Below are positions 8,859-35,917 of a stretch of DNA of 37,928 bases, piece by piece. Origin of the DNA: a virus. Taxonomy: Duplodnaviria; Heunggongvirae; Uroviricota; Caudoviricetes. The notes beneath the pieces were generated by a model. It did not search any database, was not told the DNA's origin, and saw only the letters and a list, made by a program, of their open reading frames with translations. The first letter of the stretch is position 1, and each line of letters begins with the position of its first letter. Where the stretch lies: IMG/VR virus record IMGVR_UViG_2703718774_000026; one strand, given 5' to 3'. Position numbers and translations under genes: made by a program.

Positions 8859-8862
8859 ACCA

Positions 8863-9174: not shown

Positions 9175-9182
9175 CAAAACAT

Positions 9183-9200
9183 CAGGGCGAGTTCGCCCTG
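9183..9200 (+). terminator. Stem-loop CAGGGCGAGTTCGCCCTG between the ParR-like gene and the next gene
   Basis: Inverted repeat seen directly; no U-tract, so terminator function is uncertain. The same stem recurs at 9841-9866. Confidence 0.35.
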
Positions 9201-9237
9201 CTCTCCACCTCAGAACATAAACAAGGAGAACGACTTA

Positions 9238-16028: not shown

Positions 16029-16120
16029 CGACTGACCCCGTCAGCGGGCGGCGTGCGCGGTGTTCCGGTTTGACTCCGTGACCGTTTACACCGCGCACCC
16101 ACCGCCCGATTTTTTCAGGA

Positions 16121-16624
16121 GTGAACCCCATGAGTATGGTTGCCAGAACTAACCCCGGCCCCGCAGAGGACGACATCACCGATACCGATGATGGCGACAC
16201 TCGCATTTCAGCGGGTGCATTCTGGCCGGATATTGTGCTGCGTGAGCTGCGTCTGGCGGTACGACTGCCGGGCCGCGTGACCACCTCCCGCCTGCTGCAT
16301 ACCGCCACCGGGGCCATAGCACACGTTACCCGCGAGCTGGAAGCATGGCAGCAGGAACAACAGGCGGCTGGCTATCAGACGCTGGCCGATGTTCCGGCCC
16401 CTGTAATTAACGGAGAAAGCGTCAATCTCTGGCACTGGCGCAATGCTGTTTATACCGCCACACGCGCCCTGATTCTGGAGCGTTACCGCGATGCGGACAC
16501 AACGGACAAGGGCGACCGCCGGGCGGACGCACTGGATATACAGACATCGGATTTGTGGCGCGATGTGAGCTGGGCCATCTCTGACATTCTGGGACGACCG
16601 CGAATGTTTGCGGAGCTGTGCTGA
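16121..16624 (+). CDS. L: Head completion/stabilisation protein (P2 gpL-like), 167 aa
   Basis: Size and position match P2 L; stop overlaps the X start. Confidence 0.8.
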   Translation: MNPMSMVARTNPGPAEDDITDTDDGDTRISAGAFWPDIVLRELRLAVRLPGRVTTSRLLHTATGAIAHVTRELEAWQQEQQAAGYQTLADVPAPVINGESVNLWHWRNAVYTATRALILERYRDADTTDKGDRRADALDIQTSDLWRDVSWAISDILGRPRMFAELC

Positions 16625-16824
16625 TGAAAGTGAAGGCACTGGAAGGCGACACCGTGGATTCGCTCTGTTTCCGGTACTACGGCACGACACGGGGCGTCAC
16701 CGAAAAGGTGCTGGATGCCAACCCCGGACTCTGTCAGCAGGTATTTCTGGACGCCGGGCAGGAAGTGGAGATGCCGGAGCCGGAGAAGAAGAAACGAGAA
16801 ATGATTCAGTTGTGGGGGGAGTAG
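16624..16824 (+). CDS. X: Tail protein X (P2 gpX-like), 66 aa
   Basis: KALEGDTVDSLCFRYYGTTRGVTEKVLDANPGL parallels P2 X as recalled from memory; ATG at 16624 overlaps the L stop. Confidence 0.8.
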   Translation: MKVKALEGDTVDSLCFRYYGTTRGVTEKVLDANPGLCQQVFLDAGQEVEMPEPEKKKREMIQLWGE

Positions 16825-16826
16825 CA

Positions 16827-17150
16827 GTGAGCACCATTCAAACAGGGATCACAGAGCAGGTTATTGCGTGGCTCTTTGACCACCTGCCAACGGTGTATGC
16901 AGTAGGCGCGGCTGTCAGCATTTCCGCGCTGATGAGTCTTTATGACGGACGAACACTGGTTCAGACCGTAACGGGATCGCTGGCGTGCGGCGTTCTTGCC
17001 ATGGCCGTGGCCGGGTCGCTGCGCTTCTTCGGGATCCCTGAGGATGCAGTGACGTTTTTTGGTGCCTCAATCGGTTTTATGGGCGCAGAGAAAGCACGCG
17101 ACAAGGTTATTGCAATATTTGATCGCAGGGTGAAGGAGAGGAACGAATGA
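16827..17150 (+). CDS. Putative holin, about 107 aa
   Basis: GTG start after a GGGGGAG RBS; two or three hydrophobic helices; position between X and the endolysin. An alternative ATG start lies at 16931. Confidence 0.55.
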   Translation: MSTIQTGITEQVIAWLFDHLPTVYAVGAAVSISALMSLYDGRTLVQTVTGSLACGVLAMAVAGSLRFFGIPEDAVTFFGASIGFMGAEKARDKVIAIFDRRVKERNE

Positions 17151-17539
17151 GCAACACATTTAAATTCAGCAGCCGAAGCGAAAAGAATTTGCAGGGTGTA
17201 AATCCTGATCTGGTGAAAGTGACCCGACGGGCGCTGGAAATCTCGGAAGTGGATTTTGGTATCACCGAAGGATTGCGCAGTCGTTATCGTCAGAAGCAGC
17301 TCGTGACCACAGGCAAGAGCCAGACCATGAACAGTCGCCATCTCACAGGGCATGCCGTGGATGTTGTGGCTTATGTTGGCAGCCAGGTGTCATGGGAATG
17401 GCCGCTGTACGAAAAAATCGCAGCAGCATTCAGACAGGCCAGCCGGGAACTGAATATTCCGGTGGAATGGGGCGGCGACTGGAAGACCCTGAAAGACGGA
17501 CCGCATTTTCAGTTACCACACGGAGCCTATCCGGCATGA
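17147..17539 (+). CDS. Endolysin, peptidase M15-type (VanY-like zinc peptidase fold), 130 aa
   Basis: SRHLTGHAVDV and a later His are consistent with an H-x6-D...H zinc triad; start overlaps the holin stop; differs from the P2 K lysozyme. Confidence 0.7.
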   Translation: MSNTFKFSSRSEKNLQGVNPDLVKVTRRALEISEVDFGITEGLRSRYRQKQLVTTGKSQTMNSRHLTGHAVDVVAYVGSQVSWEWPLYEKIAAAFRQASRELNIPVEWGGDWKTLKDGPHFQLPHGAYPA

Positions 17540-17943: not shown

Positions 17944-18085
17944 CCAACCCACATGGGGAAACCTCGGAATATGGGGCGACCGCCTTCTGGATGCACTGGA
18001 AACCTGTAACGCGGATAAACGGGCCATTGCTGAACTGGATAAGAGAATAGCCGAACTGACACACCAGACGGGAGTAACACAATGA
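17804..18085 (+). CDS. Rz1-like outer-membrane lipoprotein spanin (P2 LysC position), about 93 aa
   Basis: Lipobox LLTGC after a short signal sequence, Pro-rich body; embedded out of frame in the 3' part of the Rz-like gene. Confidence 0.6.
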   Translation: MNAPTLCLTLVLLTGCAGTQNAPRPAPSVRLIPQTLTMPVTPPPFPDQPTWGNLGIWGDRLLDALETCNADKRAIAELDKRIAELTHQTGVTQ

Positions 18086-19714
18086 CCAGTAAGAACTTTG
18101 CACTGATTACAGCCATGACACAGGCTGAACTGACTCAAAAGGTGAATGAACATCTTGCGAAAGGGTGGCATCTTCAGGGGGAGACGCGGGTTGCCTACGA
18201 ACCCGGCACCCCGTGGTATCTAATGCAGGCAATGGTGGCCGATGGCACTACAGACATCTCACCTGATTCCCCCCAGCACGGCAGCGTGCCGGAGTGGTAT
18301 TACGTGGTGGTACTTGCTGGTCAATCCAATGCCATGTCATATGGTGAGGGAATGCCGCTGCCGGATTCTTACGATGCGCCCCACCCACGCATTAAGCAAC
18401 TGGCCCGTCGCAACACAGTGACTCCCGGTGGTAAAGCATGCGCATTTAACGACATCATTCCGGCAGATCACTGCCTGCATGATGTTCAGGATATGAGCGT
18501 ACTGAATCACCCGAATGCAGACCTGAGCAAAGGGCAGTATGGCTGTGTCGGACAGGGCTTGCATATTGCCAAACGCCTGTTGCCTTACATTCCACAGAAT
18601 GCCGGGATTTTACTGGTTCCATGCTGTCGTGGTGGTTCGGCATTCACCCAGGGCGCGGAGGGGACATTCAGCGAGTCCACAGGAGCCAGTCAGGATTCGG
18701 CTCGCTGGGGTGTGGGTAAACCTTTATATCAGGACCTGATTTTGCGCACGAAGGCCGCATTGCAGAAAAACCCAAAAAACATGCTGCTGGCCGTATGCTG
18801 GATGCAGGGCGAATTTGACATGAGCGCCGCTACGTACTCACAGCAACCTCCGCTGTTTGCGGCCATGCTGAAACAGTTTCGTGCGGACATTACCGAGTTT
18901 AACACGCAGTGTCATGGAGGCAGAGCGGCAAGTGTGCCATGGATTTGTGGTGACACGACGTATTACTGGAAAAACACCTACGGCACGCAGTACGACACCA
19001 TTTACGGGGCGTACAAAAACAGGGAGAGCGACAACGTTTTCTTTGTGCCATTCCTGACCGATGGTAGTGGCAACAATACCTCCACCAACGCACCAACGGA
19101 AGATCCGGATGCTGCAAGTGAGGGATATTACGGTTCGGCATCCCGAACGAACAAAAACTGGGTATCATCAAATCGCCAGACGCATTTCAGTTCATGGGCG
19201 CGCAGGAGCATTATTCCGGATCGTATGGCAACCGCTATTCTGAACGTAGCCGGTCGCACCTTAGCCTTCATCAGTGGTAAGGCACCGGANNNNNNNNNNN
19301 NNAGGCGCACTGACCAACAATCAGTTCGGTCTGGGAATTTATCTGTATACCGATGTAGCGTTACCTGACGTCGTGGCGATGACCGGGACTGGTAACCCGT
19401 TCCTGATGTCGTTCTTCACCCAGACCACAGACGGCAAACTGAATCTGATGCATCACAAGAAAGCAGGAAACACAAAGTTGGGCGAGTTCGGGAATTACAG
19501 TAACGACTGGCAGACGCTGGAGCTGGTGTTCACCGCCAGCAGTGCCACGGTTACTCCGAAACTGAATGGAGTGGCTGGCCCGGCATTCCAGGTCATAAAA
19601 GACAGTCTGACACTGGGGCTGAATGCACTGACGCTGACGGATATTACCAAAAATGCAACGTATGGCGTTGAGATAGAAAGTCTGGTGCTGGAAATAAATA
19701 GTCCTGCAGCGTAA
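18082..19714 (+). CDS. DUF1737-SASA-type SGNH O-acetylesterase (NanS-p-like), interrupted by an N-run
   Basis: Catalytic-type block VVVLAGQSNAMSYG (GQSN) after a short N-terminal domain; the ORF appears to continue across the 13-N gap, whose frame shift matches 13 mod 3 = 1; start overlaps the LysC stop. Confidence 0.6.
19290..19302. other. Run of 13 N (assembly gap or masked bases)
   Basis: Literal n characters in the sequence; true length unknown. Confidence 1.
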
Positions 19715-21761: not shown

Positions 21762-22658
21762 ATGCCTGCCGTTGACCTTTCCCAGTTACCGGAACCCGCC
21801 ATCATCGCGGAGCCTGACTTTGAGGCAATTCTGGCTGACACAAAGGCCATGATGATTGCGTCCTATCCTGCCGAACAGCGTGAAGCCGTCTCCGCCGCGC
21901 TGGAGCTGGAATCGGAACCCCTGAACGTTATCGCCCAGACAACAGCGTTTCGTGAAATGCTGTTACGCCAGCGGGTCAATGAGGGGGCACGCGCCTGCAT
22001 GTTAAGCCACAGCGCCGGGACAGACCTGGACAACCTCGCGGGCAATATGAACACAAAGCGCCTGACCATCACTCCGGCAACGGATACCACCGACGCAGTG
22101 ATGGAAAGTGACACCTCGCTGAGACTGCGGGCGCAGCGGGCGTACGATGGCCTGAGTGTTGCTGGCCCGTCAGGTGCATACGAGTATTTTGCCCGCAGCG
22201 CCAGCGGTCTGGTGCGTGATGCGCGGGCTATCAGTCCGTCTCCGGCAAATGTGACGGTTTCCATCCTGTCCACTGAAGGCGACGGCACAGCAACGGAGGC
22301 GTTGCTTAATACCGTTCGCGCCGTTCTGAATGCAGAGGATACCCGCCCGGTGGCCGACCGCCTGACGGTACAGAGCGCCAGAATCGTGACATGGCGGCTG
22401 AATGCAAAACTGTACTTTTACCCCGGCCCGGAATCCGAACCTATTCTGGCGGCGGCTGAATCGTCGTTCAGGAAGTGGCTGGCTGAGCAGGGGCTTATCG
22501 GTCAGGACGTGGCGTTGTCCGCCATTGCTGCCGCACTGCATGTGCACGGTGTGCAACGCGTGGAGATAATCGAACCCACACAGAATATGGCCATCAGCGA
22601 CATACAGGCGGCGCGCTGTGAGTCGTTCACCATCAGCGAAGGTGGGCGCAATGAGTAA
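21762..22658 (+). CDS. J: Baseplate assembly protein J (P2 gpJ-like), 298 aa
   Basis: Size and order as in P2. Confidence 0.85.
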   Translation: MPAVDLSQLPEPAIIAEPDFEAILADTKAMMIASYPAEQREAVSAALELESEPLNVIAQTTAFREMLLRQRVNEGARACMLSHSAGTDLDNLAGNMNTKRLTITPATDTTDAVMESDTSLRLRAQRAYDGLSVAGPSGAYEYFARSASGLVRDARAISPSPANVTVSILSTEGDGTATEALLNTVRAVLNAEDTRPVADRLTVQSARIVTWRLNAKLYFYPGPESEPILAAAESSFRKWLAEQGLIGQDVALSAIAAALHVHGVQRVEIIEPTQNMAISDIQAARCESFTISEGGRNE

Positions 22659-23181
22659 TTCACTGTTACCACCATCAGCCAGCAGTTTCATGCGTTGTGC
22701 CGAAGCTGTCGGAACGCGCATTACAGACATCCCGGTAGACCTCAACACGCTGTGGTCGCCGGACACCTGCCCGGTGCACCTGCTGCCTTATCTCGCCTGG
22801 GCATTTTCCGTTGACCGCTGGGATCGCAACTGGCCGGAAGAGACAAAACGACAGGTGATTCGTGATGCATGGCTGATACACCGACACAAAGGGACCATCA
22901 GCGCACTGCGCAGGGCCATTGAGCCGCTGGGATACCTCATTCGCGTGTCTGAGTGGTGGGAGTTCGGCGGAGAACCGGGAACATTTACCGTTGAAGTCGG
23001 CACACTGGACAGTGGCGTGACGGAGGAAATGTATCTGGAAATGGAGCGGTTGATTGCTGATGCCCGTCCGGTCAGCCGCCACATGACAGGGCTGAATATC
23101 ATTCAGGAAATTCCGGGGGATATTTTTGCAGCGGCGGCAACTCATGACGGTGAAGTTATTACCATTTATCCGGACGATTAA
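22651..23181 (+). CDS. I: Baseplate/tail protein I (P2 gpI-like), 176 aa
   Basis: Internal ATG at 22651 overlaps the J stop; size matches P2 I. Confidence 0.8.
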
Positions 23182-23183
23182 GC

Positions 23184-25316
23184 ATGAGTACCACAACACG
23201 AAAATTTAAAACCGTTATCACCGATACAGGTGCCAAAAAATTAGCTCAGGCAGCCGCGCCAGATGGTAAGCCTGTCCGCCTGACTCATATGGCCGTGGGC
23301 GACGGTGGCGGCGCGTTGCCCACACCAGACAGTAAGCAGACCCGTCTGGTGCATGAGGTGTGGCGACACACTGTTAATCGCGTCATCCTGGACGCAACAC
23401 ATCAGAACCGCATTATTGCGGAGCTGGTTATTCCTCCAGAAACGGGCGGATTCTGGATCCGGGAAATTGGTGTGTTTGATGAGCACGGCGATTTAATCGC
23501 GGTGGGCAATACTGCCGAAAGTTACAAGCCAGCCGTTGCCGAAGGGTCCGGACGTGCACAAACATTTCGCACCATTCTGACCGTATCCAGCACTGCCACT
23601 GTGGCGCTTACCGTGGATAACACCATGGTGATGGCCACAGTGGATTACGTGGATAACGAACTGAAAGAGCATGAACAGTCACGATGTCACCCGGATGCCT
23701 CGCTGACCGCAAAAGGCTTTGTTCAACTCAGTAGCGCCACTAACAGCGATTCTGAAACGCTGGCTGCAACGCCGAAAGCGGTTAAGGTCGCGTATGATCT
23801 TGCTAACGGAAAATATACAGCGCAGGATGCCACAACAGCGCGAAAAGGCCTTGTCCAGCTTAGTAGTGCAACCAACAGTACATCTGAAACGCTGGCGGCA
23901 ACATCAAATGCAGTAAAAGCTGCCTATGACAATGCTGAAAAACGTCTGCAGAAAGCTAAGAATGGTGAGGATATCTCTGATAAAGACACCTTTACGAAAA
24001 ATATCGGTGCCTGCCGTGCATATAGTGCAGAGCTGAATATTGGTGGAGATAGTGAAGCATGGACAACTGCGCAGTTGATTTTTTGGCTAGAGAGTCAGGG
24101 GGCATTTAACCATCCTTACTGGATGTGCAAAGGCTCATGGGCTTATGCAAATAATAAGGTCATTACAGATACAGGTTGCGGAAGTATTTGTCTTGCAGGT
24201 GCTGTTGTGGAAGTTATTGGCACCCGCGGCGCAATGACCATACGCATTACCACACCGAGTACATCCAGCGGTGAAGGCATCCCTAATGCTCAATTTACTT
24301 ATATTAATCATGGTGATGCTTATGCTCCTGGCTGGCGAAGGGACTATAACTCCAGGAATAAGCCAACAGCATCAGAGATCGGGGCGTTACCGTCAGATGG
24401 GACAGCAGTATCGTCAGTTAATCTGGCTTCAAAAGGTCGGCTGACCGCCCTGACAGATAATATGCAGGGGGCCACAGGTCTGGAGTTATACGAGGCGTAT
24501 AACAACGGATATCCAACAACGTATGGAAATATCATTCACCTGAAAGGGATGACAGCCGTTGGCGAAGGCGAATTACTCATCGGCTGGAGTGGTATAAGCG
24601 GTGCTCATGCTCCGGCATTTATTCGTTCACGACGGGATACGCCCGACGCAAACTGGTCGCCGTGGGCGCAGCTTTACACCTCGGCTCATCCTCCTGAAGA
24701 GTTTTATCCAGTCGGTGCACCGATTCCGTGGCCATCAGATACCGTTCCGTCTGGTTATGCCCTGATGCAGGGGCAGACTTTTGACAAATCTGCATACCCG
24801 AAACTTGCAGTCGCTTATCCGTCAGGCGTTATTCCTGATATGCGTGGCTGGACGATTAAGGGCAAGCCCGGCAGTGGTCGTGCCGTATTGTCTCAGGAAC
24901 AGGACGGCATTAAATCGCACACCCACAGCGCCAGCGCATCCAGTACGGATTTGGGGACGAAAACCACATCGTCGTTTGATTACGGTACTAAAACGACCAG
25001 TTCATTTGATTACGGCACAAAAACTACGAATAGCGCTGGAAATCATTCACACAATATACCTGTTGGTCACACTGGCGCGGGGAATGGTGTATCAGCCGGT
25101 TATAACGCTGCGTTAGGTACTGGTACCACGTCGAGCGCAGGCGAGCATGCTCACAATGTATATATCGGTGCCCATAACCACACTATCGGCATTGGTGCTC
25201 ATGCCCATTCTGTCATTATTGGTCCCCACGGACACACCATCACCGTTAACGCTACGGGTAACGAAGAAAACACCGTAAAAAACATCGCATTTAACTATAT
25301 TGTGAGGCTTGCATAA
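23184..25316 (+). CDS. H: Tail fibre protein H, 710 aa, with P2-like N-terminus and divergent C-terminal tip
   Basis: N-terminal 230 aa closely parallel P2 H, including a tandem repeat ([33 protein letters not shown] and [33 protein letters not shown]); the C-terminus has a collar-like block, three [10 protein letters not shown] repeats and a His-rich HxH region. Confidence 0.9.
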
Positions 25317-25894
25317 TGACATTCAGAATGAGTGAACACTCACGGACCATAAAAATTTATAATCTACTGACCGGAACCAATGAGTTTATTGGTGAAGGTG
25401 ATGCATACATTCCACCTCATACAGGTCTGCCTGCAAACAGTACCGATATTGCCCCGCCAGATATTCCGGCTGGCTTCGTGGCCGTTTTCAACAGTGATGA
25501 GGCATCGTGGCATCTCGTTGAAGACCATCGGGGTAAAACGGTTTATGACGTGGCATCAGGGGACTCGTTATTTATTTCTGAACTCGGTCCATTACCGGAA
25601 AATGTTACCTGGTTGTCGCCGTATGGAGAGTATCAGAAGTGGAACGGCACATCCTGGGTGAAAGATGCAGAAGCAGAAAAACTGTTTCGGATAAGGGAGG
25701 CGGAAGAAACAAAAAACAGCCTGATGCAGGTAGCCAGCGAGCATATTGCGCCACTTCAGGATGCCGTAGATTTGGATATTGCAACGGAGGAAGAGGCATC
25801 GTTACTGGCTGCATGGAAGACATACCGGGTATTGTTGAATCGTGTTAATACAGCGGTAGCAGCGGATGTTGAGTGGCCAGTCGCCCCACAATAA
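25316..25894 (+). CDS. G: Tail fibre assembly chaperone (P2 gpG / Tfa-like), 192 aa
   Basis: Start overlaps the H stop; size and position fit a Tfa-family protein. Confidence 0.8.
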
Positions 25895-25900
25895 AGAGAA

Positions 25901-25930
25901 AAAGCCATCGATTGAAATATAGATGGCTTT
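25901..25930. terminator. Hairpin between convergent G and the acetyltransferase gene
   Basis: AAAGCCATC (25901-25909) pairs with GATGGCTTT (25922-25930) around a 12-nt A/T-rich loop. Confidence 0.45.
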
Positions 25931-25937
25931 ATGTACT

Positions 25938-26510
25938 CTATTTATACAATACAACACCGCTCTTTTTAGTTATATATGTGCAGTTCGATGGTATATCTTT
26001 ATTTATAAAAGACATTGCACCTATTTTTACATTATCCCCAATTTTACGTGATAATCCAATGATGCAACAATTAGCTCCGATATCAACGTTACTACCAATT
26101 TTTACTCTTGAACCAGGCATGTCACCATCTATCTGTCCAATGGTAGTATTCTGTCGTAACACCAGATTTTCACCAGCATCAACAGCAAAATGAACAACAA
26201 TTCCAGCATGATGGGGAATTGTTAACCCTTTTCCAATATTTGCGCCCAATCCAATTTCACAACCAAATTTGTTAATTATTTTACTGTTTAACTTTTTGGC
26301 TGCTTTCTTATGTAATTTATTACCATTAATATACATTTCGTTAGCCAACCGCCACCAGAAAAGGAAATTCCGGTTACGCTGTTTTTTCTCTCTTAAAAGC
26401 CTCCAGATATCCATACGTTTCCGCCGAATTACTTCATATTTCCAGAAGTTTTTTAAATTAGTAGAGTCCCCAAATAAAACAAAGTGAATTGCCATTAAGT
26501 AAGACAGCAC
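25938..26510 (-). CDS. Hexapeptide-repeat (left-handed beta-helix) acetyltransferase, about 190 aa
   Basis: Imperfect hexad repeats GCEIGLGANIGKGLTIPHHAGIVV...GQIDGDMPGSRVKIGSNVDIGANCCIIGLSRKIGDNVKIGA; GTG start after AAGGAG preferred over the ATG at 26543; very AT-rich; sits at the P2 Z/fun cargo position. Confidence 0.75.
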   Translation of the reverse strand: MLSYLMAIHFVLFGDSTNLKNFWKYEVIRRKRMDIWRLLREKKQRNRNFLFWWRLANEMYINGNKLHKKAAKKLNSKIINKFGCEIGLGANIGKGLTIPHHAGIVVHFAVDAGENLVLRQNTTIGQIDGDMPGSRVKIGSNVDIGANCCIIGLSRKIGDNVKIGAMSFINKDIPSNCTYITKKSGVVLYK

Positions 26511-26666
26511 GATAATCTCCTTAATTATTATTTCAGACCACACATATTATAAGGTTAAGAGATTATAAAATCCTGTTGTTTGTTATTCAAAAACAATTTT
26601 CTGAGAAGGACATACAACAGCAAGTCGCCAGTCACCTTCATCAGGAAATTGGCGACATACGTTAAA

Positions 26667-27161
26667 TCAGAGCAGCCCCTTAACTGAGCTGGTCGCGCTA
26701 TTAAGGGATGATGTCACCTTATCTTTGAAGCCGGACAACATATCGCTGAACGATGAGGATTGCAGGCGCTCCCGCAAATCCTCATCACAGCGTTCAAGAG
26801 TCAGTGAAAATTCTATCTTTTTCGACTTACCGTAGCGATCAAACTCGGAGCGGGTCGTATTCGTTTCGGTCAGGACATACATGCCGTAAATCTGCCCGAC
26901 GCCATCAATCAGAGGCCAGGGCCGTCCTGTATACGCCTGCGTGGTCAGCAGAGACAGCGACACTTCGCCACCTGTAATTTCAGGATAAAGCACACCAGAA
27001 AGAACGATGCGATCATCACCTGCACCGATATACTGCCAGCTTGCTGAACGGTTAACGCGTTCATTTTTCACATGCCGCCAGCTTTTATTTTGCTGTAACT
27101 GCTGATGCGGCAGCGTGCGCAGCTCAAAAACAAACATGCCATAGATCATCATCATGGCCAT
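26667..27161 (-). CDS. U: Tail protein U (P2 gpU-like), 164 aa
   Basis: MIYGMFVFEL.TLPHQ...VLSGVLYPEITGG...GRPWPLIDG.G.IYGMYV matches P2 U blocks as recalled from memory. Confidence 0.85.
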   Translation of the reverse strand: MAMMMIYGMFVFELRTLPHQQLQQNKSWRHVKNERVNRSASWQYIGAGDDRIVLSGVLYPEITGGEVSLSLLTTQAYTGRPWPLIDGVGQIYGMYVLTETNTTRSEFDRYGKSKKIEFSLTLERCDEDLRERLQSSSFSDMLSGFKDKVTSSLNSATSSVKGLL

Positions 27162-27167
27162 GACTCC

Positions 27168-30011
27168 TCAATCTTTATCGTAAAAACTGCCACGCCCGGC
27201 ACGGGCGCGCCGTTCCATTTCTGCCCTGACCATTTCACCGACCAGTTTCGCCAGTTCGCGGGGATTCTGCGTAACAACGTTATGCAGATGAACATGAATT
27301 TCACCGCCAAATCTGGAGACAGCAGGCTCCCGATTACGGGAAGCTGCAGGAACTGATGCCACTGGCGATCGTATGGCCTCCGCCACCGGGCGGGAGCTGG
27401 CCGCAACAACAGGGACCAGCGCCGGAGGCAGCGGAGCCGGGACTACGGGTGTGATATTAATTGCGGGGGCAGGCTTACTGACCTGCGCAATCTTCCGCTC
27501 CTGCCACTCCCCACGAACAGCAAGTGCGCGGGGCAGGTTCTTAAAGACAATATCGCCAGGGCCAATGCGTTTTTTCGTCTCATCAACCAGCTTACCTGTG
27601 TTATCAGCAATTTTGCTGAGTCTGCGTAGCGTCCCGGTATTGCTGTCTGTGAGCGGTTTGTTGTCTTTGGGTTTATCACCTCCGGTGCCATTGCCATTTT
27701 CCACAGGCTTCGGCGGATTGATTTTCGCCAGGTCCCCCTGAAGTAAGGCAACCTTATCCTGAAGAATGGCCGCACGCTGTGCGTCTTCGATTTTCTTGCG
27801 CGCCCTTTCCGCTTCATCCGGAAGGACGCCAAGTTTTTCAAGTATCCACGCCAGCGTATCCAGTAGCATTTTTGCAGGTGTCAGAACAAGTTGTAACGCA
27901 CCGCCAAGAACGTTACCGAATATCTCGCCAGCACTGGTACATTTATCCAACGTTTCCTTGCTGGACTCCATCGGTGACAGCAGCGATTTAAACCAGTTAA
28001 ACACCTGGCTGATCCCGCTTCCGATTGCGTCAAAAACAGGGCCAAACCGTTCAAAGGTTTCACGCAACGGGTTCAGCCTTTCCATAATCCCGCTGAACAC
28101 CCCGGCAAAAAATGCCCTGATGGGATCCCAGTATTTCCAGATAAGGACGGCAGCTCCGGCAAGCGCAGCCACGATAAGACCAACCGGACTGAACAGCGCC
28201 CCGATAGCGCCTCCCAGTAAAGAAACGGAACCCGTCACCATTCCCCATAGTGCTGGCAGGACCCTGACAGCATTCATTGATCCGGTCAGGAGAGAAAAAC
28301 CAAGACGCAGTTTTGCCAGCGGACCAGCAAGCACACCAATAGCCAGCGACAACGAGCCAACCGTTGCAGTCATTGCCAGCAACGCACCGCCTGCTATCAG
28401 TAGCTGGCGCGTCAGTGCCGGATGGGCCTGCGCCAGCGCCGTCACCCTTGATACCACCCGCGTGAGCCACTGCGTGACAGAACGCAGCGGACCGTCAATC
28501 AGATCTGCAATGCGGATGCGCAACCCTTCCCATGCACTGCCGAGTGATTTCAGATCGCCGTCAAGGTTGTTGGCCATAACCTTTGCTGTGCGTTCAGCCT
28601 CACCGCGCGCGCCTTCAAGTTCTTTTCTCAGTTTGGGTAAGGAACCGTCACCCACTGCATCAACGAGCGCCATAAACGATGTGAAAGCCTCTTCTCCGGC
28701 AATGTCCTTAAAGAACGATACCCGGTCAACTTCCCCGTATTTGCGGGTGGCTTTATAAAGGTCGGCCAGCACATCCTCCATCGGGCGCATTTTACCCCCG
28801 GCATCCGAGACGGACACGCCCAGCTCTTTCAGAGCTTCTGCCGCCGCCTTTGGCGGTGATGCCAGACGAGCCAGGCTGGCACGCATTGCCGTCCCGGCAT
28901 CACTCCCTCTGATGCCCATATTCGCCAGCACACCAGCCATCGCTGCGGCCTGCTCCAGCGATATTCCCAGCTTACCCGCCACCGGACCTGCATATTTCAT
29001 GGTTTCGCCCAGTGCGCGAAGGTCAGTGTTGGTACGGGTAAACGCTGCGGTGAGTGTGTCACCGACCCGGTCCATCTGGTCAGCAGAAAGGCCGAACTGC
29101 GTCAGGATATTTGAGCCAATATCTGCCGTCTCGCCGAGATCCATACCGCCAGCCGTTGCCATGCTCAGCACTCCGGGAAGCGCAGCCTGAATGGCCTGCG
29201 GTGTGAAGCCTGCCATTGCAAGAAATGCCTGCCCACTGGCGGCATCGCCTGCGGTGAACTGCGTTTCAGAGCCAAGTTTTAACGCCTGCTCACGCAGCGC
29301 CTTAAACTGCGGGCTGTTCTGGTCGATTCGCGTCAGCGCCTGAACGCGGGACATCTCTTTGCCGAACCCGATCGCGGGCTGCAAAAAACGCCCGGCAGCA
29401 TAGCCGCCCGCCGCTGCCGCACCAATTGCCAGCGCACCACCTGTTTTCAGTTTTCCCGCGGTTTCCTGCGCGCGCGAATACCACTTACGCGCCCGCGTTA
29501 CACGCGCAAGCGCCTGCCGTTCGCGTTCAAGCTGGTTGTTGTACTGTTCGGTGCGTCTGATGGCCTGCTGGATGGTGTTATCGCTGCCTGTCAGGGAAAT
29601 GCCGTGGCGTTTCAGCTCTCCGCCAAGCTCCCGCATTTTCTGAATTTCCCGTGTGCGCGATTCATTCAGGCGTTCAAGCCGGGTGCTTAACTGCTGCATC
29701 AGCTTTTGTTGTTTTTCGCTGAGCACTGTACCCGTGCGTTGTAACTGATTAAGGGCGTTAAGCTGGCGTCGTGCTTTCACGATACCCGCATCCGCTTTAC
29801 TGACAGCGTCGCGGGCGCGCTCAAATGAACGAGCCTGACGCTCGAGATTTTTAATCGCCCCCTGCGTTCGCTGGATGGAGTCACCAAACTGCCCCATCAG
29901 GCGGCGGGCGTTTTCGGCAGGCCGGGTCAGCCTGTCAACGGCGCTGAAAGCGACCCGGATATCAAGAGTCTTCATTGTCTGCATTCCCGCTGCGAAGTGC
30001 CGCCCGCTCAC
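27168..30011 (-). CDS. T: Tail tape measure protein (P2 gpT-like), 947 aa
   Basis: Long coiled-coil N-terminal region and Gly/Ala-rich transmembrane-like segments; located between E/E' and U. Confidence 0.9.
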   Translation of the reverse strand: MSGRHFAAGMQTMKTLDIRVAFSAVDRLTRPAENARRLMGQFGDSIQRTQGAIKNLERQARSFERARDAVSKADAGIVKARRQLNALNQLQRTGTVLSEKQQKLMQQLSTRLERLNESRTREIQKMRELGGELKRHGISLTGSDNTIQQAIRRTEQYNNQLERERQALARVTRARKWYSRAQETAGKLKTGGALAIGAAAAGGYAAGRFLQPAIGFGKEMSRVQALTRIDQNSPQFKALREQALKLGSETQFTAGDAASGQAFLAMAGFTPQAIQAALPGVLSMATAGGMDLGETADIGSNILTQFGLSADQMDRVGDTLTAAFTRTNTDLRALGETMKYAGPVAGKLGISLEQAAAMAGVLANMGIRGSDAGTAMRASLARLASPPKAAAEALKELGVSVSDAGGKMRPMEDVLADLYKATRKYGEVDRVSFFKDIAGEEAFTSFMALVDAVGDGSLPKLRKELEGARGEAERTAKVMANNLDGDLKSLGSAWEGLRIRIADLIDGPLRSVTQWLTRVVSRVTALAQAHPALTRQLLIAGGALLAMTATVGSLSLAIGVLAGPLAKLRLGFSLLTGSMNAVRVLPALWGMVTGSVSLLGGAIGALFSPVGLIVAALAGAAVLIWKYWDPIRAFFAGVFSGIMERLNPLRETFERFGPVFDAIGSGISQVFNWFKSLLSPMESSKETLDKCTSAGEIFGNVLGGALQLVLTPAKMLLDTLAWILEKLGVLPDEAERARKKIEDAQRAAILQDKVALLQGDLAKINPPKPVENGNGTGGDKPKDNKPLTDSNTGTLRRLSKIADNTGKLVDETKKRIGPGDIVFKNLPRALAVRGEWQERKIAQVSKPAPAINITPVVPAPLPPALVPVVAASSRPVAEAIRSPVASVPAASRNREPAVSRFGGEIHVHLHNVVTQNPRELAKLVGEMVRAEMERRARAGRGSFYDKD

Positions 30012-30198
30012 GCCAGCTAACCACTTCGCCGGGCGTCATCATGAAGATTTCGGCGGGCGACCAGTTAAAAATAACGGCAATATCTGCCACAAAGTCTTCT
30101 ATGTGCTCAAAGCACACAACCGTGATCAGGCTTCCGTCGCCTGTTCGTTCTTCCCGCCAGAGTCCGCACCGCTCAAAAAATTTACGGCAACCACACAT
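29962..30198 (-). CDS. E' reading frame: -1 frameshift extension of the tail chaperone (E+E')
   Basis: Slippery heptamer TTTTTTG on the minus strand (30174-30180, seen as CAAAAAA on the plus strand) in the last 20 codons of E; the -1 frame stays open and overlaps the T start, the P2 E/E' architecture. Confidence 0.7.
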   Translation of the reverse strand: MCGCRKFFERCGLWREERTGDGSLITVVCFEHIEDFVADIAVIFNWSPAEIFMMTPGEVVSWRERAALRSGNADNEDS

Positions 30199-30491
30199 AA
30201 CTGAATAAAGTCACGGGATGCCATTTTTTTGATCGTCACTTCATCCAGTCGCGGTGATGTCACGCGTGACAGCAGCGTAAACATGGATTCCGCTTTCAGA
30301 TTCAGCACATCAGACAGCGACAAATCTCGCAGAGATCCAGCCTGCTCAATAGCCCCGGTGATCTCCACATACGTGATTTTTTCGCCGCCTCGCTCAATTG
30401 GTTGGGTAAGTTTTACACCACGCTCACTGGTTTCTTTCACAGTGTCAGCAACTACCGTGTTTTCGGTATCGATGTTTTTCGTCTCTTTCAT
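30126..30491 (-). CDS. E: Tail assembly chaperone E (P2 gpE-like), 121 aa
   Basis: Position between FII and T; contains the slippery site. Confidence 0.8.
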   Translation of the reverse strand: MKETKNIDTENTVVADTVKETSERGVKLTQPIERGGEKITYVEITGAIEQAGSLRDLSLSDVLNLKAESMFTLLSRVTSPRLDEVTIKKMASRDFIQLCVVAVNFLSGADSGGKNEQATEA

Positions 30492-30545
30492 CAGGAAACT
30501 CCTTTCAGTCAGAGGCGACGCACTGCGCCGCCTGCATATTACTTA

Positions 30546-31058
30546 TCAGCCAAGCCCGAGCGCGGAACGGATGCGATCGGGCACAATGTCCTTGCCGTCC
30601 TTCCGGTAAATGAAGTTCAGCAGGTCAATCTCCCACAACGGGCGATCGTTAACACTCAGCTTGTAGTAGGTGTTTTTAATGGCGTAAGTGTGTGATGTGG
30701 CTTCGCCCTGTTTGGCTTCCCCCATATCAATTTCCGTCACACGTCCGCGCATTTCGACTTCATACAGGTCGCTTTCTGCATCGGTGTAATATTCACCCGC
30801 AAAACGCAGCAGCGTGCCGTCAATCGTGCCGCCATACTTAAGGAACAGCTCACGAACTGCGCCCCCCATGACAAAGCTCGCATCAAGCGCGGAGTCGTCC
30901 AGACCGAGATCAATACTTACCGCACCCATCATGCCACCACCCCGGTAGCTGTCGGTTTTGCGCGTCAGCTTAGGCAGAGTGACGGACGTCACCTTACCCA
31001 CTTCGTTTTCACCATCCACAAACAGCGTAAAAAAGCGAAGATGTTTTGGTACAGCCAT
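30546..31058 (-). CDS. FII: Major tail tube protein (P2 gpFII-like), 170 aa
   Basis: Size and position immediately after the sheath gene. Confidence 0.9.
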   Translation of the reverse strand: MAVPKHLRFFTLFVDGENEVGKVTSVTLPKLTRKTDSYRGGGMMGAVSIDLGLDDSALDASFVMGGAVRELFLKYGGTIDGTLLRFAGEYYTDAESDLYEVEMRGRVTEIDMGEAKQGEATSHTYAIKNTYYKLSVNDRPLWEIDLLNFIYRKDGKDIVPDRIRSALGLG

Positions 31059-32242
31059 CAGGCACCTCCCAGCACCGCAAATGCGGGTTCAAAGTATTCA
31101 TCAGTAAACGTCTGGTAAAGCTCCATGTCTTCCAGTGGCGGAACGGGCGTATATTTGTAGCGAATACGCACACGCCCCTGACGTAAATCCGTGGTGCTGT
31201 TATCCACCACGTCATACCAGCACTCCGCGCCAATCAGTTTCCCGGCAGTAACCAGCGAATCCAGTTTTGCCCTGATGGCACTGATAACATCCTTCACGTT
31301 CGCAGGCGTCAGTGGACTGTCGATGGTTTCAAACTGCGCTTCCGCAATTGAATCAGCCAGCACCTGTGCGGTTCGGGTATACACCTCAAAGATGTAGGCG
31401 TTCGTTTCCGGTGTGCGGTTGCCCCAGAAGCGGAACCCGTTGCGACGAATAATGGTCGTGATTTCTTTGTTGTTGAGGCTGTTGGCATCACTGTCTTCGG
31501 CCTGCAACGACCAGAAAACATGCCTGGACATCCCCAGCACATTTTTAACAGGAACGTTGGACAGCGATTTGTGCCAGCCCTGCTCATGGTCAATGTACGC
31601 ACGAAGGCCGCACGCATAGGCAGGCGCGGGGAACGTTTCGTTTTTGCCACTTTTCGGGTTGTAGGCGATGAAGTCCGGCCATAAGAGCATCACCTCACGT
31701 TCGTTGAATTTCTGGCGGTAGGTAATTGCCTCAGCCATCGTGTTACAGTCATGACATGAGGCATACACAAACGCGCGCAGTTTACCCGCAATCACGCACA
31801 GGGATTTTGTCACCGCCTCCGTGTCCAGCTCCGGCGCGGCCAGAATACGCGGACGGTATCCGATGCTTTCATCCTGCTCTGCAACAAGCAGCGCATACAT
31901 CCCCGTATAGCTGCCGTCAGATTCAGAACCACCGATAACCAGTTGATCCTGCGTCTTACCGCCTTCTTCTTTGTGTTCAGCCACGCGAACGACGATCACT
32001 TTTGTGCTCACCTGGTCTGCAATAGCCTTAAGCGCACGATAAAGCGTCCCCGTAGTCCCGCATTTTCCCAGCACGTCATTGACGCGGGTCAGCAGTGTGG
32101 GCTTGTTCAGCGGGAACAGCTCCGCGTCCGCATCATCCGCCGTTGCCACGATACCGATAACACTGGAATCAACATCATTAATCGCTGTTACCAGGTCGGT
32201 ACTTTCCGTAACACGGGCACCATGAAAACGAGTTTCACTCAT
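31058..32242 (-). CDS. FI: Tail sheath protein (P2 gpFI-like), 394 aa
   Basis: Blocks FPLNKP, LRAF, WPDF, IDHEQGWHKSLSNV, IRRNGFRFWGNRT, YTRTAQV, YKYTPVPPLE match P2 FI as recalled from memory. Confidence 0.9.
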   Translation of the reverse strand: MSETRFHGARVTESTDLVTAINDVDSSVIGIVATADDADAELFPLNKPTLLTRVNDVLGKCGTTGTLYRALKAIADQVSTKVIVVRVAEHKEEGGKTQDQLVIGGSESDGSYTGMYALLVAEQDESIGYRPRILAAPELDTEAVTKSLCVIAGKLRAFVYASCHDCNTMAEAITYRQKFNEREVMLLWPDFIAYNPKSGKNETFPAPAYACGLRAYIDHEQGWHKSLSNVPVKNVLGMSRHVFWSLQAEDSDANSLNNKEITTIIRRNGFRFWGNRTPETNAYIFEVYTRTAQVLADSIAEAQFETIDSPLTPANVKDVISAIRAKLDSLVTAGKLIGAECWYDVVDNSTTDLRQGRVRIRYKYTPVPPLEDMELYQTFTDEYFEPAFAVLGGA

Positions 32243-32399: not shown

Positions 32400-33500
32400 A
32401 TGACCGATACCACCATGCAATTGCTCAGTCAGAGCACAGACCCCGTGAAAATGCCGGATTTTGATATTCTCGCGGAGGGGGAAACACTGTCCGGCGTGGC
32501 AGAGCGCCTGATGAGCCTGTCACTGACCGACAACCGGGGATTTGAAGCGGACCTGCTCACCATCACGCTGGATGATGCGGATGGTCAGTTGCAGCTACCG
32601 CCACGGGGCGCGCGCCTGACGGTTCTCATTGGCTGGAAAGGAGAACCGCTGACAGAAAAAGGCACTTACATTGTTGATGAAATCGCTCACGAAGGACCGC
32701 CGGACAGGCTGACTGTTTCAGCCAGAAGCGCAGATTTTCGGGATGAATTTAACGTTAAACGTGAGGTGTCCTGGCATGATGTGACCGTTGAGCGCGTGGT
32801 ATCCGCCATCGCTCATCGGTACGGTCTGAAACCACAAATCAGCGAAATGCTGATGGATATTGAAATCGACCACGCCGACCAGACCGAAGAAAGCGACATG
32901 TCCTTCCTTACGCGCATGGCGGAAATGCTGGGCGCAATCACTACGGTAAAAAGCAGTAATCTGTTATTCATCATGCCAGGCGGTGGCGTGAACGCACAGG
33001 GCCAGCCGTTGCCATCGTTCGCCATCACGCGCAGCAGTGGCGATCGCCATCAGTTCCGCATTGCTGACCGCGAAGCGTATACGGGGGTACGTGCTTACTG
33101 GCTTGATCTTAATTACGGGAAAAAGAAAAAAGTCAGCGTGAAACGCCGCAAACCGAAAAAGGAGAAAAGCAGCAGCCGTGAAGGTGACTATATGGAAGGT
33201 GCGGAAGGCAACGTGTTTGTGTTACGCAAGACTTATCAGAACGAGCAGGCAGCAAGACGTGCAGCGGCGGCAAAGTGGCAGCAGCTACAACGCGGAGCCG
33301 CATCATTCTCCATCACGCTGGCGCGTGGACGCGCAGAACTCTATCCCGAAATGCATGGCACGGTGACAGGCTTCAAAAGTGACATCGATAATCAGGACTG
33401 GATTATTGCAAAAGCCGAGCACACCATTGATAACAGCGGCTTTACCACACAGCTTGAGCTTGAAGCAAAAATCCCGGAATGGATAGCAGAAACAGAATGA
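32400..33500 (+). CDS. D: Tail protein D (P2 gpD-like), 366 aa
   Basis: LTDNRGFEAD, ARSADFR, KREVSWHD, DQTEESDMSFLTRMAE, ITRSSGDRHQFRIADREAYTGV, FSITLARGRAELY, GFKSDIDNQDWIIAKAEHTIDNSGFTTQLELE match P2 D as recalled from memory; ATG at 32400 after GGGAGGG. Confidence 0.9.
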   Translation: MTDTTMQLLSQSTDPVKMPDFDILAEGETLSGVAERLMSLSLTDNRGFEADLLTITLDDADGQLQLPPRGARLTVLIGWKGEPLTEKGTYIVDEIAHEGPPDRLTVSARSADFRDEFNVKREVSWHDVTVERVVSAIAHRYGLKPQISEMLMDIEIDHADQTEESDMSFLTRMAEMLGAITTVKSSNLLFIMPGGGVNAQGQPLPSFAITRSSGDRHQFRIADREAYTGVRAYWLDLNYGKKKKVSVKRRKPKKEKSSSREGDYMEGAEGNVFVLRKTYQNEQAARRAAAAKWQQLQRGAASFSITLARGRAELYPEMHGTVTGFKSDIDNQDWIIAKAEHTIDNSGFTTQLELEAKIPEWIAETE

Positions 33501-33899: not shown

Positions 33900-35039
33900 G
33901 TGGGAAACAATAAAGTGAAATTAGGAAGAAATGATAAGTGCTGGTGTAATTCAGGACTTAAGTATAAAAAGTGCCATCTTGGTCGAGATCGTGAAACTCC
34001 GGTATCCAAAGCCGAGGCACTGAAATTTTCAAAGTCTCTCTCGCAGAGAAAGGCATGTTATGCGCCAGCATCCATGCACGAAGATTGTGATAAACGCATC
34101 GTTCAGGCGCATACGATATCTAAGAGCAGTAGCCTTAAGGCGATCGCCGACTCCAGCAATCACGTCATGGGGGTGATAATGAACTTAGCAAGCCTGATGA
34201 GAAACAACGGAAAATGGCTTCCCGAGAAGATCGGTATCAATCAGGCATCCACTTTTACAGGATTTTGTGCAGTTCATGACAGAATCTTATTTTCATGCCT
34301 AGAGAACGAAAAATTTACAGGCACGGACGAGCAGTGCTTTGCCTTAATGTTTCGTTCATTGTCTAAAGAAATTTATGCCAAAGAAGGGGGAGTGCTATCT
34401 TCTGATTTTGCTAAAAATGCCGATAAAGGAAAGCTACAAGTTGAACAGTATTATATTCAGAAATTAATCGACCAGCACCAAAGTGGCTTAAATGCAGCAA
34501 TAATTGAATTAAATAATCTTAAAACTAGCCTCGACCGCATCCTACTTAGCAGGCAATTTTCAGAAATTGAAAGTGTTATCTTCACTTTTGCAGAGCCTTT
34601 ACCAATTGTAGTTTCGTCAATTCTTTCACCGGAGAGGGATTTCGATGGGACCAAAATTCAGGATTTGAGCGATCTTACAGTGTCGGCGGAACAAGTATGT
34701 TTCAATGCTTTTTCCTGCGGAGGTAAGGGATATGTAGTGTTCAGTTGGCTGAGAACTTCAACAATTATCAGACGTTTTATACGGACACTAATTAAGATCC
34801 CAGCTAACAGGATGTTCAATACCCTTCTGTATTTTTTCTTCACAAAGGCCGAAAATACATATTCATCCCCTGAGTGGTGGGACAGGCTCAGTGATAAACA
34901 GCGAGAGAATATCGGCAACATGATTATGTCAGGGGTTGAATTTTTTGGCAGACCTACATCACAGGTTGATCATTCCGTTGATTATAACGCCGCTGCACTT
35001 GAAGAGATAACATGCAGCAACAACGAAATTTGCAGCTGA
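33900..35039 (+). CDS. SEC-C-motif protein of unknown function, 379 aa
   Basis: N-terminal CWCNSGLKYKKCH is a SecA C-terminal-type zinc motif; rest unrecognised; GTG start; AT-rich; inserted between D and ogr. Confidence 0.6.
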   Translation: MGNNKVKLGRNDKCWCNSGLKYKKCHLGRDRETPVSKAEALKFSKSLSQRKACYAPASMHEDCDKRIVQAHTISKSSSLKAIADSSNHVMGVIMNLASLMRNNGKWLPEKIGINQASTFTGFCAVHDRILFSCLENEKFTGTDEQCFALMFRSLSKEIYAKEGGVLSSDFAKNADKGKLQVEQYYIQKLIDQHQSGLNAAIIELNNLKTSLDRILLSRQFSEIESVIFTFAEPLPIVVSSILSPERDFDGTKIQDLSDLTVSAEQVCFNAFSCGGKGYVVFSWLRTSTIIRRFIRTLIKIPANRMFNTLLYFFFTKAENTYSSPEWWDRLSDKQRENIGNMIMSGVEFFGRPTSQVDHSVDYNAAALEEITCSNNEICS

Positions 35040-35776: not shown

Positions 35777-35917
35777 ATGTCGCAAAAATCGCTTACAGCC
35801 ATCACGTTCTGCGTGACGGTAATCCTCATCATCTGGATGCTACGCGGTTCGCTGTGTGAAATACGGATGAGCTTCTGGGGAGCGGAGTTTGCGGCGTTCT
35901 TACAGTGTAAGCAGTAA
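35777..35917 (+). CDS. Hok/Gef-family type I toxin-like peptide, 46 aa
   Basis: Hand-translated MSQKSLTAITFCVTVILIIWMLRGSLCEIRMSFWGAEFAAFLQCKQ: one transmembrane helix then R.SLCEIR and EFAAF, resembling Hok (RKSLCEIRY...EVAAF, recalled from memory); RBS AAAGGAG. Confidence 0.55.
   Translation: MSQKSLTAITFCVTVILIIWMLRGSLCEIRMSFWGAEFAAFLQCKQ

Follow-up and report, generated by a model that had tools for sequence, protein, structure and literature searches.

What is a gene for a small acetyltransferase doing beside the tail-fibre genes of a P2-like prophage, and on what does its product act? The question is raised by IMG/VR record IMGVR_UViG_2703718774_000026, a stretch of 37,928 nucleotides (nt) referred to here as the window. 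The interval 25895-26666, which separates the tail-fibre assembly gene G (tfa) from the tail gene U (Table 1), contains a single open reading frame (ORF; minus strand, 25938..26543), the likely start of which is a GTG codon at 26510. Its product, of 190 amino acids (aa), is annotated in RefSeq as a "serine O-acetyltransferase" (coding sequence WP_000954196.1) of E. coli O26:H11 strain 11368, with which the window is 100% identical across 32 kb, one masked stretch excepted. As argued below, this name is probably wrong. The protein is very probably a left-handed beta-helix (LbH) O-acetyltransferase other than CysE, and there is roughly an even chance (about 0.5) that it is a glycan-modifying lysogenic-conversion enzyme of the envelope.

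A probable O-acetyltransferase without a serine site

The sequence-only reading had described the product as a hexapeptide-repeat (LbH) acetyltransferase of the serine or sugar O-acetyltransferase type, and both profile and structure bear this out. A family alignment of 46 members, down to 41% identity, was made into a profile, which in a search of the PDB retrieved serine acetyltransferases (SATs) first (6WYE, with an E value of 4e-24, and 4N69, 8I04 and 1T3D), while LacA, Maa, LpxD and GlmU ranked after them; the best 60 matches were all LbH acyltransferases or closely similar hexapeptide proteins. In the AlphaFold2 (AF2) model (pLDDT 82.7, pTM 0.83), residues 2-82 form five helices at the N-terminus; short beta-strands with hexapeptide-type spacing come next, in an LbH region that is less confident (block pLDDT 63-79), and there are no membrane segments. 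The best Foldseek matches of the model are SATs only (TM 0.65-0.71, probability 1.00). The Pfam Hexapep model scores just under its cut-off (24 bits vs 27). Among phage families, the protein belongs with PHROG 2154, to which no function is assigned (292.9 bits, E 1.4e-87; residues 13-190 against positions 3-181 of the 185 in the profile), and so the sequence was already known under that entry and under its RefSeq name.

Is it, then, a genuine serine O-acetyltransferase? As an auxiliary metabolic gene, it would then increase the synthesis of O-acetylserine and cysteine, or induce the CysB regulon, whether in the lysogen or in the course of infection. In both sequence and fold, its best PDB matches are CysE structures, the names in the databases all say serine acetyltransferase, and the catalytic Asp/His pair is conserved. 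When a Salmonella CysE fragment was added to the family alignment and the residue columns were read off in E. coli numbering, catalytic D143 fell on E85 of the window protein (Asp or Glu in 46/46 members) and catalytic H158 on H100 (His in 45/46). The substrate-binding positions, however, are lost. D157 is replaced by P99 and R192 by S134, D157 and R192 being kept in none of the 46 members, and H193 is replaced by R135 and kept in only 2 of 46. From the E. coli and H. influenzae SAT structures, we take these three residues to be the serine/cysteine contacts. The protein also lacks the large alpha-helical N-terminal domain of the SATs: about 82 residues precede the LbH, and the alignment with SATs begins only from position 53 of the profile (SAT residue ~110-139). 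At the other end, the chain stops about 10 residues past the LbH (...VVLYK), without the CysK-binding tail.

The curated models tell the same story. CysE model TIGR01172 gives 61.7 bits against a cut-off of 210.65 and the full-length model NF008349 gives 36.8 against 397; the best NCBIfam model is that for EpsC (75.4 bits, cut-off 150), and two WcaB models score 54.0 and 54.8 bits over residues 81-187 (cut-offs 194.65 and 196). Profile search had been proposed as the test for a housekeeping family, and it points away from CysE. Neither the tail-fibre neighbours of the gene nor its relative in an LPS-core operon (see below; LPS, lipopolysaccharide) would fit a role in cysteine metabolism. A true serine acetyltransferase is therefore very unlikely, and since the serine-binding residues are lost and the scores lie below every curated cut-off, the RefSeq name is probably a misnomer. 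The family has invariant motifs of its own, WWRLA (WWR, 54) and RQNTTIG (119-125). Judged by its residues, the protein looks like an active O-acetyltransferase of the SAT/WcaB-like branch that does not use serine.

Distribution and selection

The gene is widespread, and it is maintained. At E<=1e-5 there are 336 homologs; matches below ~40% identity, from Firmicutes, archaea and others, are generic SAT-like proteins and were set aside. A full-length copy occurs in 530 of 5426 complete E. coli genomes, or about one in ten. The 599 places in which the gene is found in E. coli (533 chromosomal, 66 on plasmids) all cover at least 80% of its length. The carriers are P2-like prophages, Sp13 of O157:H7 Sakai among them, or P1-like phage-plasmids, and the host serotypes include O26:H11, O111:H8, O157:H7, O104:H4, O22:H8 and O39:NM. 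The ratio of nonsynonymous to synonymous substitution (dN/dS) is 0.08-0.26, similar to that of the adjacent tfa. The gene is under purifying selection and is not a chance ORF. In the literature on Sp13 and Sakai, nothing was found on the function of the acetyltransferase.

Linkage to the tail-fibre tip

With what does the gene travel? In IMG/VR, 78 loci with a full-length homolog were compared, and tfa was detectable by tblastn in 62 of them. In every one of these 62, tfa is convergent with the acetyltransferase gene and ends 22-99 nt from it; measured between the ends of the tblastn matches, the gap is 50 nt in 53. The identities of the two proteins co-vary (Spearman 0.84, 38 distinct pairs), a correlation that is descriptive only, because the loci are not phylogenetically independent.

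The linkage reaches across phage types. By blastn, 1.8 kb of the window (24703-26502) are 94.2% identical to the P1-like phage JL22 and 94.8% identical to vB_EcoM-Ro157c2YLVW. This shared block consists of the last ~205 codons of the tail-fibre gene H, tfa, the hairpin that follows it and the acetyltransferase ORF as far as codon three, and the fibre tip is 91-95% identical (tblastn) in P1-like contigs. In JL22 (L176), the acetyltransferase gene lies between two alternative convergent tfa genes, all inside the invertible C segment, where inverted repeats of 602 nt that are 99% complementary (26373-31836 of that genome) enclose S'-U'-acetyltransferase-tfa-Sv beside cin. The gene must therefore flip with the C segment. 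By contrast, there are no long inverted repeats in 22500-27300 of the window, and so the gene is fixed in this prophage. Convergent tfa genes also accompany the homologs in contigs L148 and L158, where tfa is confirmed by Pfam, in Hafnia phage yong2 (35% identity) and in Citrobacter rodentium phiNP (44% identity, beside hicAB), and at the end of a Buttiauxella prophage a homolog of 67% identity and a tail-fibre gene converge. In L153-L157 the homolog is found downstream of tail-fibre genes on the same strand, and a tfa-like gene was confirmed in L153 only.

Closely related prophages show how the block is exchanged. Sister prophages with U genes 97-98% identical to that of the window cease to match it at 23936, within H, and match again from 26661 on, at the stop codon of U. 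In one of these (Ecol_656) the slot holds the second half of an invertible fibre cassette and a Hin/Cin-type invertase; in another (O6:H16) it holds a different tfa (77%) and a different LbH acetyltransferase, 38% identical, with a Hexapep score of 47.7 bits. This swap of 23937-26660 among sister backbones indicates that the acetyltransferase gene is part of an exchangeable cassette and not a separate insertion.

Some of these loci are of interest in their own right. In place of the acetyltransferase gene, E. coli Ecol_656 (L180, 2511-4978) has another convergent tfa, part of an alternative fibre gene and a gene for an invertase with Resolvase and HTH_7 domains; this makes up an invertible host-range switch of the Mu/P1 type in a prophage that is P2-like. 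The O6:H16 enzyme (strain M9682-C1; L181, 4272-4817) has 181 aa and reads SYLNS where the window protein has PHHAG, and it thus appears to be without the usual catalytic His. In phiNP (L178; 643-1835 and 23165-23695) the acetyltransferase gene follows the hicAB toxin-antitoxin pair, and another ORF of this phage carries the annotation alpha-2,3-sialyltransferase. A minority of homologs occupy other sites: beside the integrase in L161 (Proteus), after int and next to an abortive-infection (Abi) family gene in ESSI2_ev040 (44% identity), and at a prophage end beside hok and copA. On plasmid contigs of enteropathogenic E. coli (EPEC; L168-L172, 5001-5594), a 50%-identical homolog lies among insertion sequence (IS) elements, ~2.3 kb downstream of a pilus cluster that begins with genes for a prepilin peptidase (A24) and an SLT-domain protein, presumably the bfp operon of an EAF-type plasmid.

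Could the gene be a functionless passenger, a decaying remnant left by the recombination of tail-fibre cassettes? It always moves with the tfa/fibre-tip block, and the slot that it occupies may instead hold the second half of an invertible cassette, both of which would be expected of such a remnant. On the other hand, its dN/dS resembles that of the essential tfa, none of its 599 places in E. coli is truncated below 80%, and the catalytic residues are conserved throughout the 46 members. Decay is thus hardly credible as an explanation.

In the searchable literature, no description was found either of a systematic coupling of this gene to tfa and the fibre tip across phage types or of its location inside a P1-type invertible segment. 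Searches likewise returned nothing that joins tail-fibre assembly, an acetyltransferase moron and superinfection exclusion, and nothing that joins the anti-phage hotspots of P2-like phages with acetyltransferases, which are not mentioned in the hotspot paper of Rousset et al.

Relatives in glycan gene clusters

What might the acceptor be? The closest relative whose surroundings are informative about biosynthesis is found in Leminorella grimontii. It is 48% identical, has the same length of 190 aa and shows the same pattern of profile scores (EpsC, 75.4 bits), and its gene closes a waaB-waaI/O-waaY-waaZ operon for the LPS outer core and faces waaL. The five waa neighbours each exceed at least one NCBIfam cut-off; waaZ reaches 402 bits on TIGR04437 (cut-off 200) and 420 on NF007333 (cut-off 473). 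No description of this waa-operon relative was found in the searchable literature. A Pseudomonas homolog lies between genes for a GT2 glycosyltransferase and a UDP-Glc/GDP-Man dehydrogenase, and in Halomonas a relative is preceded by a gene that is weakly MptE-like by Pfam (24.5 bits, cut-off 34.6), a match to the family that the Leminorella waaZ also hits. Among the distant relatives, it is L011 that follows a weakly MptE/WaaZ-like gene. The window gene itself has a GC content close to 35%, as is usual in the LPS and O-antigen clusters of E. coli.

Two IMG/VR contigs of ~45 kb present a related arrangement. In L147 (912-2445), a 62%-identical acetyltransferase gene is convergent with a YibB/HtrL equivalog (360 bits, above cut-off), the homolog of which in K-12 abuts the waa cluster. 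L149 (3074-4610) is arranged similarly; the convergent ORFs of the two contigs encode 284-285 aa, and that of L147 was the one scanned with profiles. These would be two-gene LPS-related cargo pairs on a phage.

A different kind of acceptor should also be considered, namely some other small molecule, whether a xenobiotic, antibiotic, toxin, signal or metabolite, the acetylation of which would bring a fitness gain unrelated to phages or the envelope. The LbH family does include galactoside, maltose and xenobiotic acetyltransferases, which are seen among the weaker matches, and some homologs stand in contexts that have to do with neither glycans nor phages (the EPEC bfp plasmid, next to copA, and standalone in Orbus). 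In a survey of C. rodentium prophages, the acetyltransferase is listed as a "fitness" gene (PMC6456863). Nevertheless, the matches to LacA, Maa and XAT are much weaker than those to the SAT/WcaB branch, and such a role would leave unexplained both the near-obligate adjacency to tfa in phages and the member in the waa operon. A small-molecule substrate is accordingly judged quite unlikely.

Position, composition and expression

The AT-rich gene was noted at the outset to be convergent with G across a hairpin and to lie at the position of the cargo gene Z/fun of phage P2. The first of these observations stands as made. The ORF has a GC content of 34.6% (29.8% at third codon positions, GC3), compared with 53.9% in the late region, and only 0.4% of 573-nt segments of the stretch are as low. 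The hairpin (25901-25930; dG -16.6 kcal/mol, z -3.3) has a GC-containing stem of 9 bp (AAAGCCATC/GATGGCTTT) and is followed by a run of T. The second holds as well, with one addition. In P2, fun(Z) (15675-17261, - strand) lies between G and FI. Relative to G, the position and orientation of the window gene are the same, but its far neighbour is U, because the FI-FII-E-E'-T-U block is inverted in this prophage lineage. In canonical-order P2-like contigs (L143-146, L156), homologs of 48-66% identity are found exactly between G and FI. The gene thus lies on the opposite strand just past G, is atypical in composition and is replaced by other content in sister prophages, as expected of cargo at the fun(Z) position.

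The inversion is itself a stable feature. FI-FII-E-E'-T-U occupies 26667-32242 (- strand), inverted relative to P2, leaving D alone on the + strand (32400-33500) and divergent from FI, and this order recurs in the 43 IMG/VR contigs of the type (L082-L124) and in the four genome copies examined.

Table 1. Features of the acetyltransferase locus (positions in the window)
Feature	Position	Strand	Remarks
Tail-fibre gene H, last ~205 codons (receptor-binding tip)	24703..25316	+	Left end of the 1.8-kb block in common with P1-like phages
G (tfa), tail-fibre assembly chaperone	25316..25894	+	Pfam Caudo_TAP, 136 bits; convergent, co-inherited partner
Hairpin with T-run, separating the stop codons of G and the convergent acetyltransferase gene	25890..25930		Likely terminator
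Acetyltransferase gene	25938..26510	-	190 aa, GTG start, TAG stop; five-helix N-terminal domain and left-handed beta-helix
Shine-Dalgarno sequence TAAGGAG	26517..26523	-	6 nt upstream of the GTG start; read from the sequence; start matches RefSeq
Predicted sigma-70 promoter of the acetyltransferase gene	26562..26590	-	TTGAAT - 17 nt - TATAAT, 10/12 consensus matches
Hairpin just past the U stop codon	26624..26656	-	Likely terminator of the inverted FI-U operon
U, tail gene	26667-27161	-	Phage_P2_GpU, 131 bits

How would the gene be expressed? The hairpin past U is stable (dG -24.1 kcal/mol, z -4.2; 0/200 shuffles equally stable) and would likely shield the acetyltransferase gene from late transcription. 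The predicted promoter lies within the homology with contig L135, which reaches 26592. A consensus promoter scan of the region found 5 sites, this one included, where 3.7 would be expected by chance, and by itself the promoter is therefore weak evidence. From the foreign composition, the predicted promoter of its own and the hairpins on both sides taken together, we infer that the lysogen produces the enzyme without dependence on the late operons. By the same features, the gene would be an ordinary moron with an interesting linkage. Phase variation like that of the capsule-modifying gene neuO was considered and rejected, since a search for tandem repeats in 25800-26800 found none.

The fun locus is recognised as the second defence-enriched hotspot of P2-like phages and is known to carry both lysogenic-conversion and defence genes (PMC9519451). 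Might the acetyltransferase, then, be an intracellular anti-phage defence gene that acts after adsorption on a phage or host molecule, and not on an envelope glycan? It has the position and orientation of P2 fun(Z), which blocks T5, and elsewhere its homologs adjoin an Abi-family gene near the integrase (ESSI2_ev040) or hicAB (phiNP). Yet no PADLOC model matches it (0 families in PADLOC-DB 2.0 at E<=0.01), and it is a single small enzyme without a sensor or effector domain, the closest families of which all acetylate small hydroxyl or amino acceptors in biosynthesis. The relative in the waa operon, and a linkage that is to the receptor-binding module and not to the hotspot as such, both point to the cell surface. 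A role in intracellular defence is possible but distinctly improbable. As for the known defence systems, PADLOC also gave no match for the esterase described below or for most of the neighbouring genes.

The esterase and other cargo

The prophage also carries an esterase gene at 18082-19714 (+ strand), inserted between lysC and the tail gene R. It is real, as the sequence-only reading had it: the domains DUF1737 (29.3 bits), SASA (45.6) and DUF6645 (61.7) are all above their cut-offs, PHROG 143 is matched with 780 bits, and the order of DUF1737, SASA and a C-terminal lectin-like domain is the NanS-p architecture of phi24B gp84. By its domains, the product is classed as a NanS-p-type sialate O-acetylesterase. 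In the window the gene appears as two overlapping ORFs (18082-19368 and 19274-19714) with an apparent 245-nt deletion. A frameshift was rejected as the cause, since the split arises because 13 masked N (19290-19302) replace 258 nt of an otherwise identical genome. The esterase is intact in 11368 (625 aa), and the 1878-nt gene is full length in 12/12 complete genomes listed. The usual setting in which NanS-p genes have been described is beside stx in lambdoid phages; the sister prophage L181 is without the esterase.

The same reading had joined the two genes into a matched pair, in which the acetyltransferase would acetylate a glycan of the lysogen and the esterase would remove the same acetyl groups at infection or lysis. 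Both genes are indeed in one prophage, phage esterases that deacetylate LPS or capsule exist, and prophage acetyltransferases have been discussed as their counterpart in Klebsiella (PMC13123978). In phi24B, moreover, DUF1737 anchors the esterase to the capsid, so that the enzyme rides on the virion (bioRxiv 10.64898/2026.04.10.717836). However, NanS-p enzymes are related to the mucin deacetylase NanS, and the roles described for them are to deacetylate sialic acid derived from host mucin and to decorate capsids (PMC10462455; same preprint). The two genes are also distributed independently. At least 80% of the esterase query is matched in 1390 genomes, compared with the 530 that have the acetyltransferase; in the O6:H16 prophage of the same backbone an acetyltransferase fills the slot while lysC is followed directly by R; and no esterase homolog was found in the complete genomes of P1-like JL22 and Citrobacter phiNP, which have the acetyltransferase. 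Within the prophage, the genes are 6.2 kb apart in different cargo slots. The esterase family and this independent distribution leave the pairing unsupported, and it is highly improbable.

Further cargo is found at the other usual sites. The old/tin hotspot of P2, between the replication gene A and the portal gene Q, holds genes for ParM (274 and 230 bits), Plasmid_stab_B and an Ead/Ea22-like protein (7899-9828, + strand), in keeping with a statement in the literature that a partition system occupies this hotspot in about a quarter of P2-like phages. Between D and ogr lies a gene of 41% GC for a YecA-family protein with an N-terminal SEC-C motif (33900-35039, + strand), the PADLOC matches of which, all weak, fall on the motif, and a hok/gef toxin gene follows ogr near the prophage end (35777-35917, + strand). 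Two low-GC genes (1008-2035, - strand) lie between the integrase (1-1002) and the repressor (2051-2455) and encode a DUF2511 protein and a 216-aa PHROG 5825 protein with weak similarity to a phage membrane-protein moron family.

Proposed function

How would the acetyltransferase serve the prophage? In the proposed mechanism it is a soluble, acetyl-CoA-dependent O-acetyltransferase of the CysE/WcaB-like LbH branch, with a sugar and not serine as its acceptor. Being soluble, it would need precursors in the cytoplasm as its substrates, as is the case for WcaB and WbbJ, and the step would be the O-acetylation of an envelope-glycan precursor in the cytoplasm. The likeliest acceptor would be a conserved structure such as the LPS core, with enterobacterial common antigen (ECA), colanic acid and O units as alternatives; carriage of the gene by strains whose O antigens are chemically unrelated favours a conserved structure over any particular O unit. 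An acceptor narrowed down to the LPS core is possible, though doubtful. The outcome would be an altered surface of the lysogen and, presumably, reduced adsorption of phages that use the modified structure. The gene would travel in a host-range cassette, made up of the fibre tip, tfa and the acetyltransferase gene, that recombines among P2-like, P1-like and other temperate phages. Of the conversion of a surface glycan that had been suggested from the sequence, one part thus remains plausible in the light of the 48%-identical relative in the waa operon, while the part that relied on the esterase does not. Prophage acetyltransferases have been discussed as drivers of capsule modification in Klebsiella (PMC13123978).

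Several observations weigh against envelope-glycan modification. The promoter does no more than match a consensus in AT-rich DNA, and its conservation does not extend to the P1-like copies, with which homology ends at 26502. The waa-operon relative is one locus of the approximately ten chromosomal relatives examined. The others (35-51% identity) are mostly uninformative, being found near genes for IalB, PhoH, MsrA, a sulfate permease or a CYTH protein, or standing alone, and with contexts so mixed the acceptor cannot be fixed from these distant relatives. We know of no reported O-acetylation of the LPS core of E. coli O26 or O157, a point on which the literature was not combed exhaustively. 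The tfa of this prophage is lambda-like, and lambda Stf uses OmpC; modification of a glycan therefore need not affect this fibre tip. The linkage to tfa could also reflect historical hitch-hiking in a recombining cassette, and not functional coupling. Finally, the authors of the JL22 paper state that it is not known why the gene is present (PMC9603915).

A more specific version of the proposal, itself unlikely, would make the coupling functional: the enzyme would O-acetylate an LPS-core or other conserved glycan epitope that is recognised by the co-inherited fibre tip, leaving the lysogen refractory to phages with the same tip. This should then hold on any backbone, whether P2-like, P1-like (in the Cin-invertible segment), Mu-tail or lambdoid, and distinct acetyltransferase alleles should be matched to tfa/tip alleles, as the 38%-identical O6:H16 allele might be.

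Why does it matter? The carriers include the O157:H7, O26, O111 and O104:H4 lineages, and the gene is annotated everywhere as a serine acetyltransferase, a name that the residue test contradicts. If the enzyme does acetylate a glycan, it would be a widespread and overlooked lysogenic-conversion factor for phage susceptibility, and possibly for the serology and immune recognition of major pathogens, with a bearing on phage therapy and phage typing. The fixed coupling to the receptor-binding module would then provide a simple rule by which receptor-modifying genes could be recognised in prophages. Should the acceptor be something other than a glycan, the gene is a mis-named moron.

Comparison with known systems

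The closest functional parallel may be NeuO, the LbH capsule O-acetyltransferase of prophage CUS-3 in E. coli K1, the activity of which raises phage resistance (PMC3046976, PMC13001214). Both enzymes are encoded by prophages and are, in the case of the window protein by prediction, soluble, LbH-type and dependent on acetyl-CoA; the conversion of a surface glycan is established for NeuO and proposed here. NeuO belongs, however, to another LbH branch and is not among the best 60 PDB matches of the family profile, it is phase-variable through 5' heptanucleotide repeats that the window gene does not have, and its prophage is P22-like and its substrate the K1 capsule. Hosts of the O26 and O157 types have no K1 capsule. 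A similar biological role is proposed by analogy with Sf6 Oac and the GtrC/OafA family (Acyl_transf_3), in which prophage-encoded O-acetylation of LPS changes serotype and phage adsorption, but those enzymes are integral membrane proteins that work at the periplasmic face, whereas the window protein is a soluble LbH enzyme.

With CysE (TIGR01172; 1T3D, 6WYE, 8I04) the protein has in common the last N-terminal helices, the LbH domain and the Asp143/His158 pair; the deep shortfall in score, the loss of D157, R192 and H193, the shorter N-terminus and the missing CysK-binding tail place it outside that family. Like the window protein, WcaB, of colanic acid synthesis, and EpsC are SAT-like LbH enzymes of small size (~160-190 aa); their acceptors are sugars in exopolysaccharide assembly. 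The window family remains below their cut-offs, has its own invariant motifs and is borne by phages and plasmids instead of polysaccharide clusters. The Leminorella enzyme matches it in length, in score pattern and in nearly half of its residues, and differs in being chromosomal, co-directional with the waa genes and not associated with a phage. With P2 fun(Z), finally, the gene shares the slot and orientation of non-essential cargo on the opposite strand just past G, although the proteins are unrelated, Fun(Z) having ~528 aa and no LbH, and the far flank here is U and not FI. The acetyltransferase is thus proposed to work like NeuO or WcaB and sits like fun(Z), but it is a member of none of these groups.

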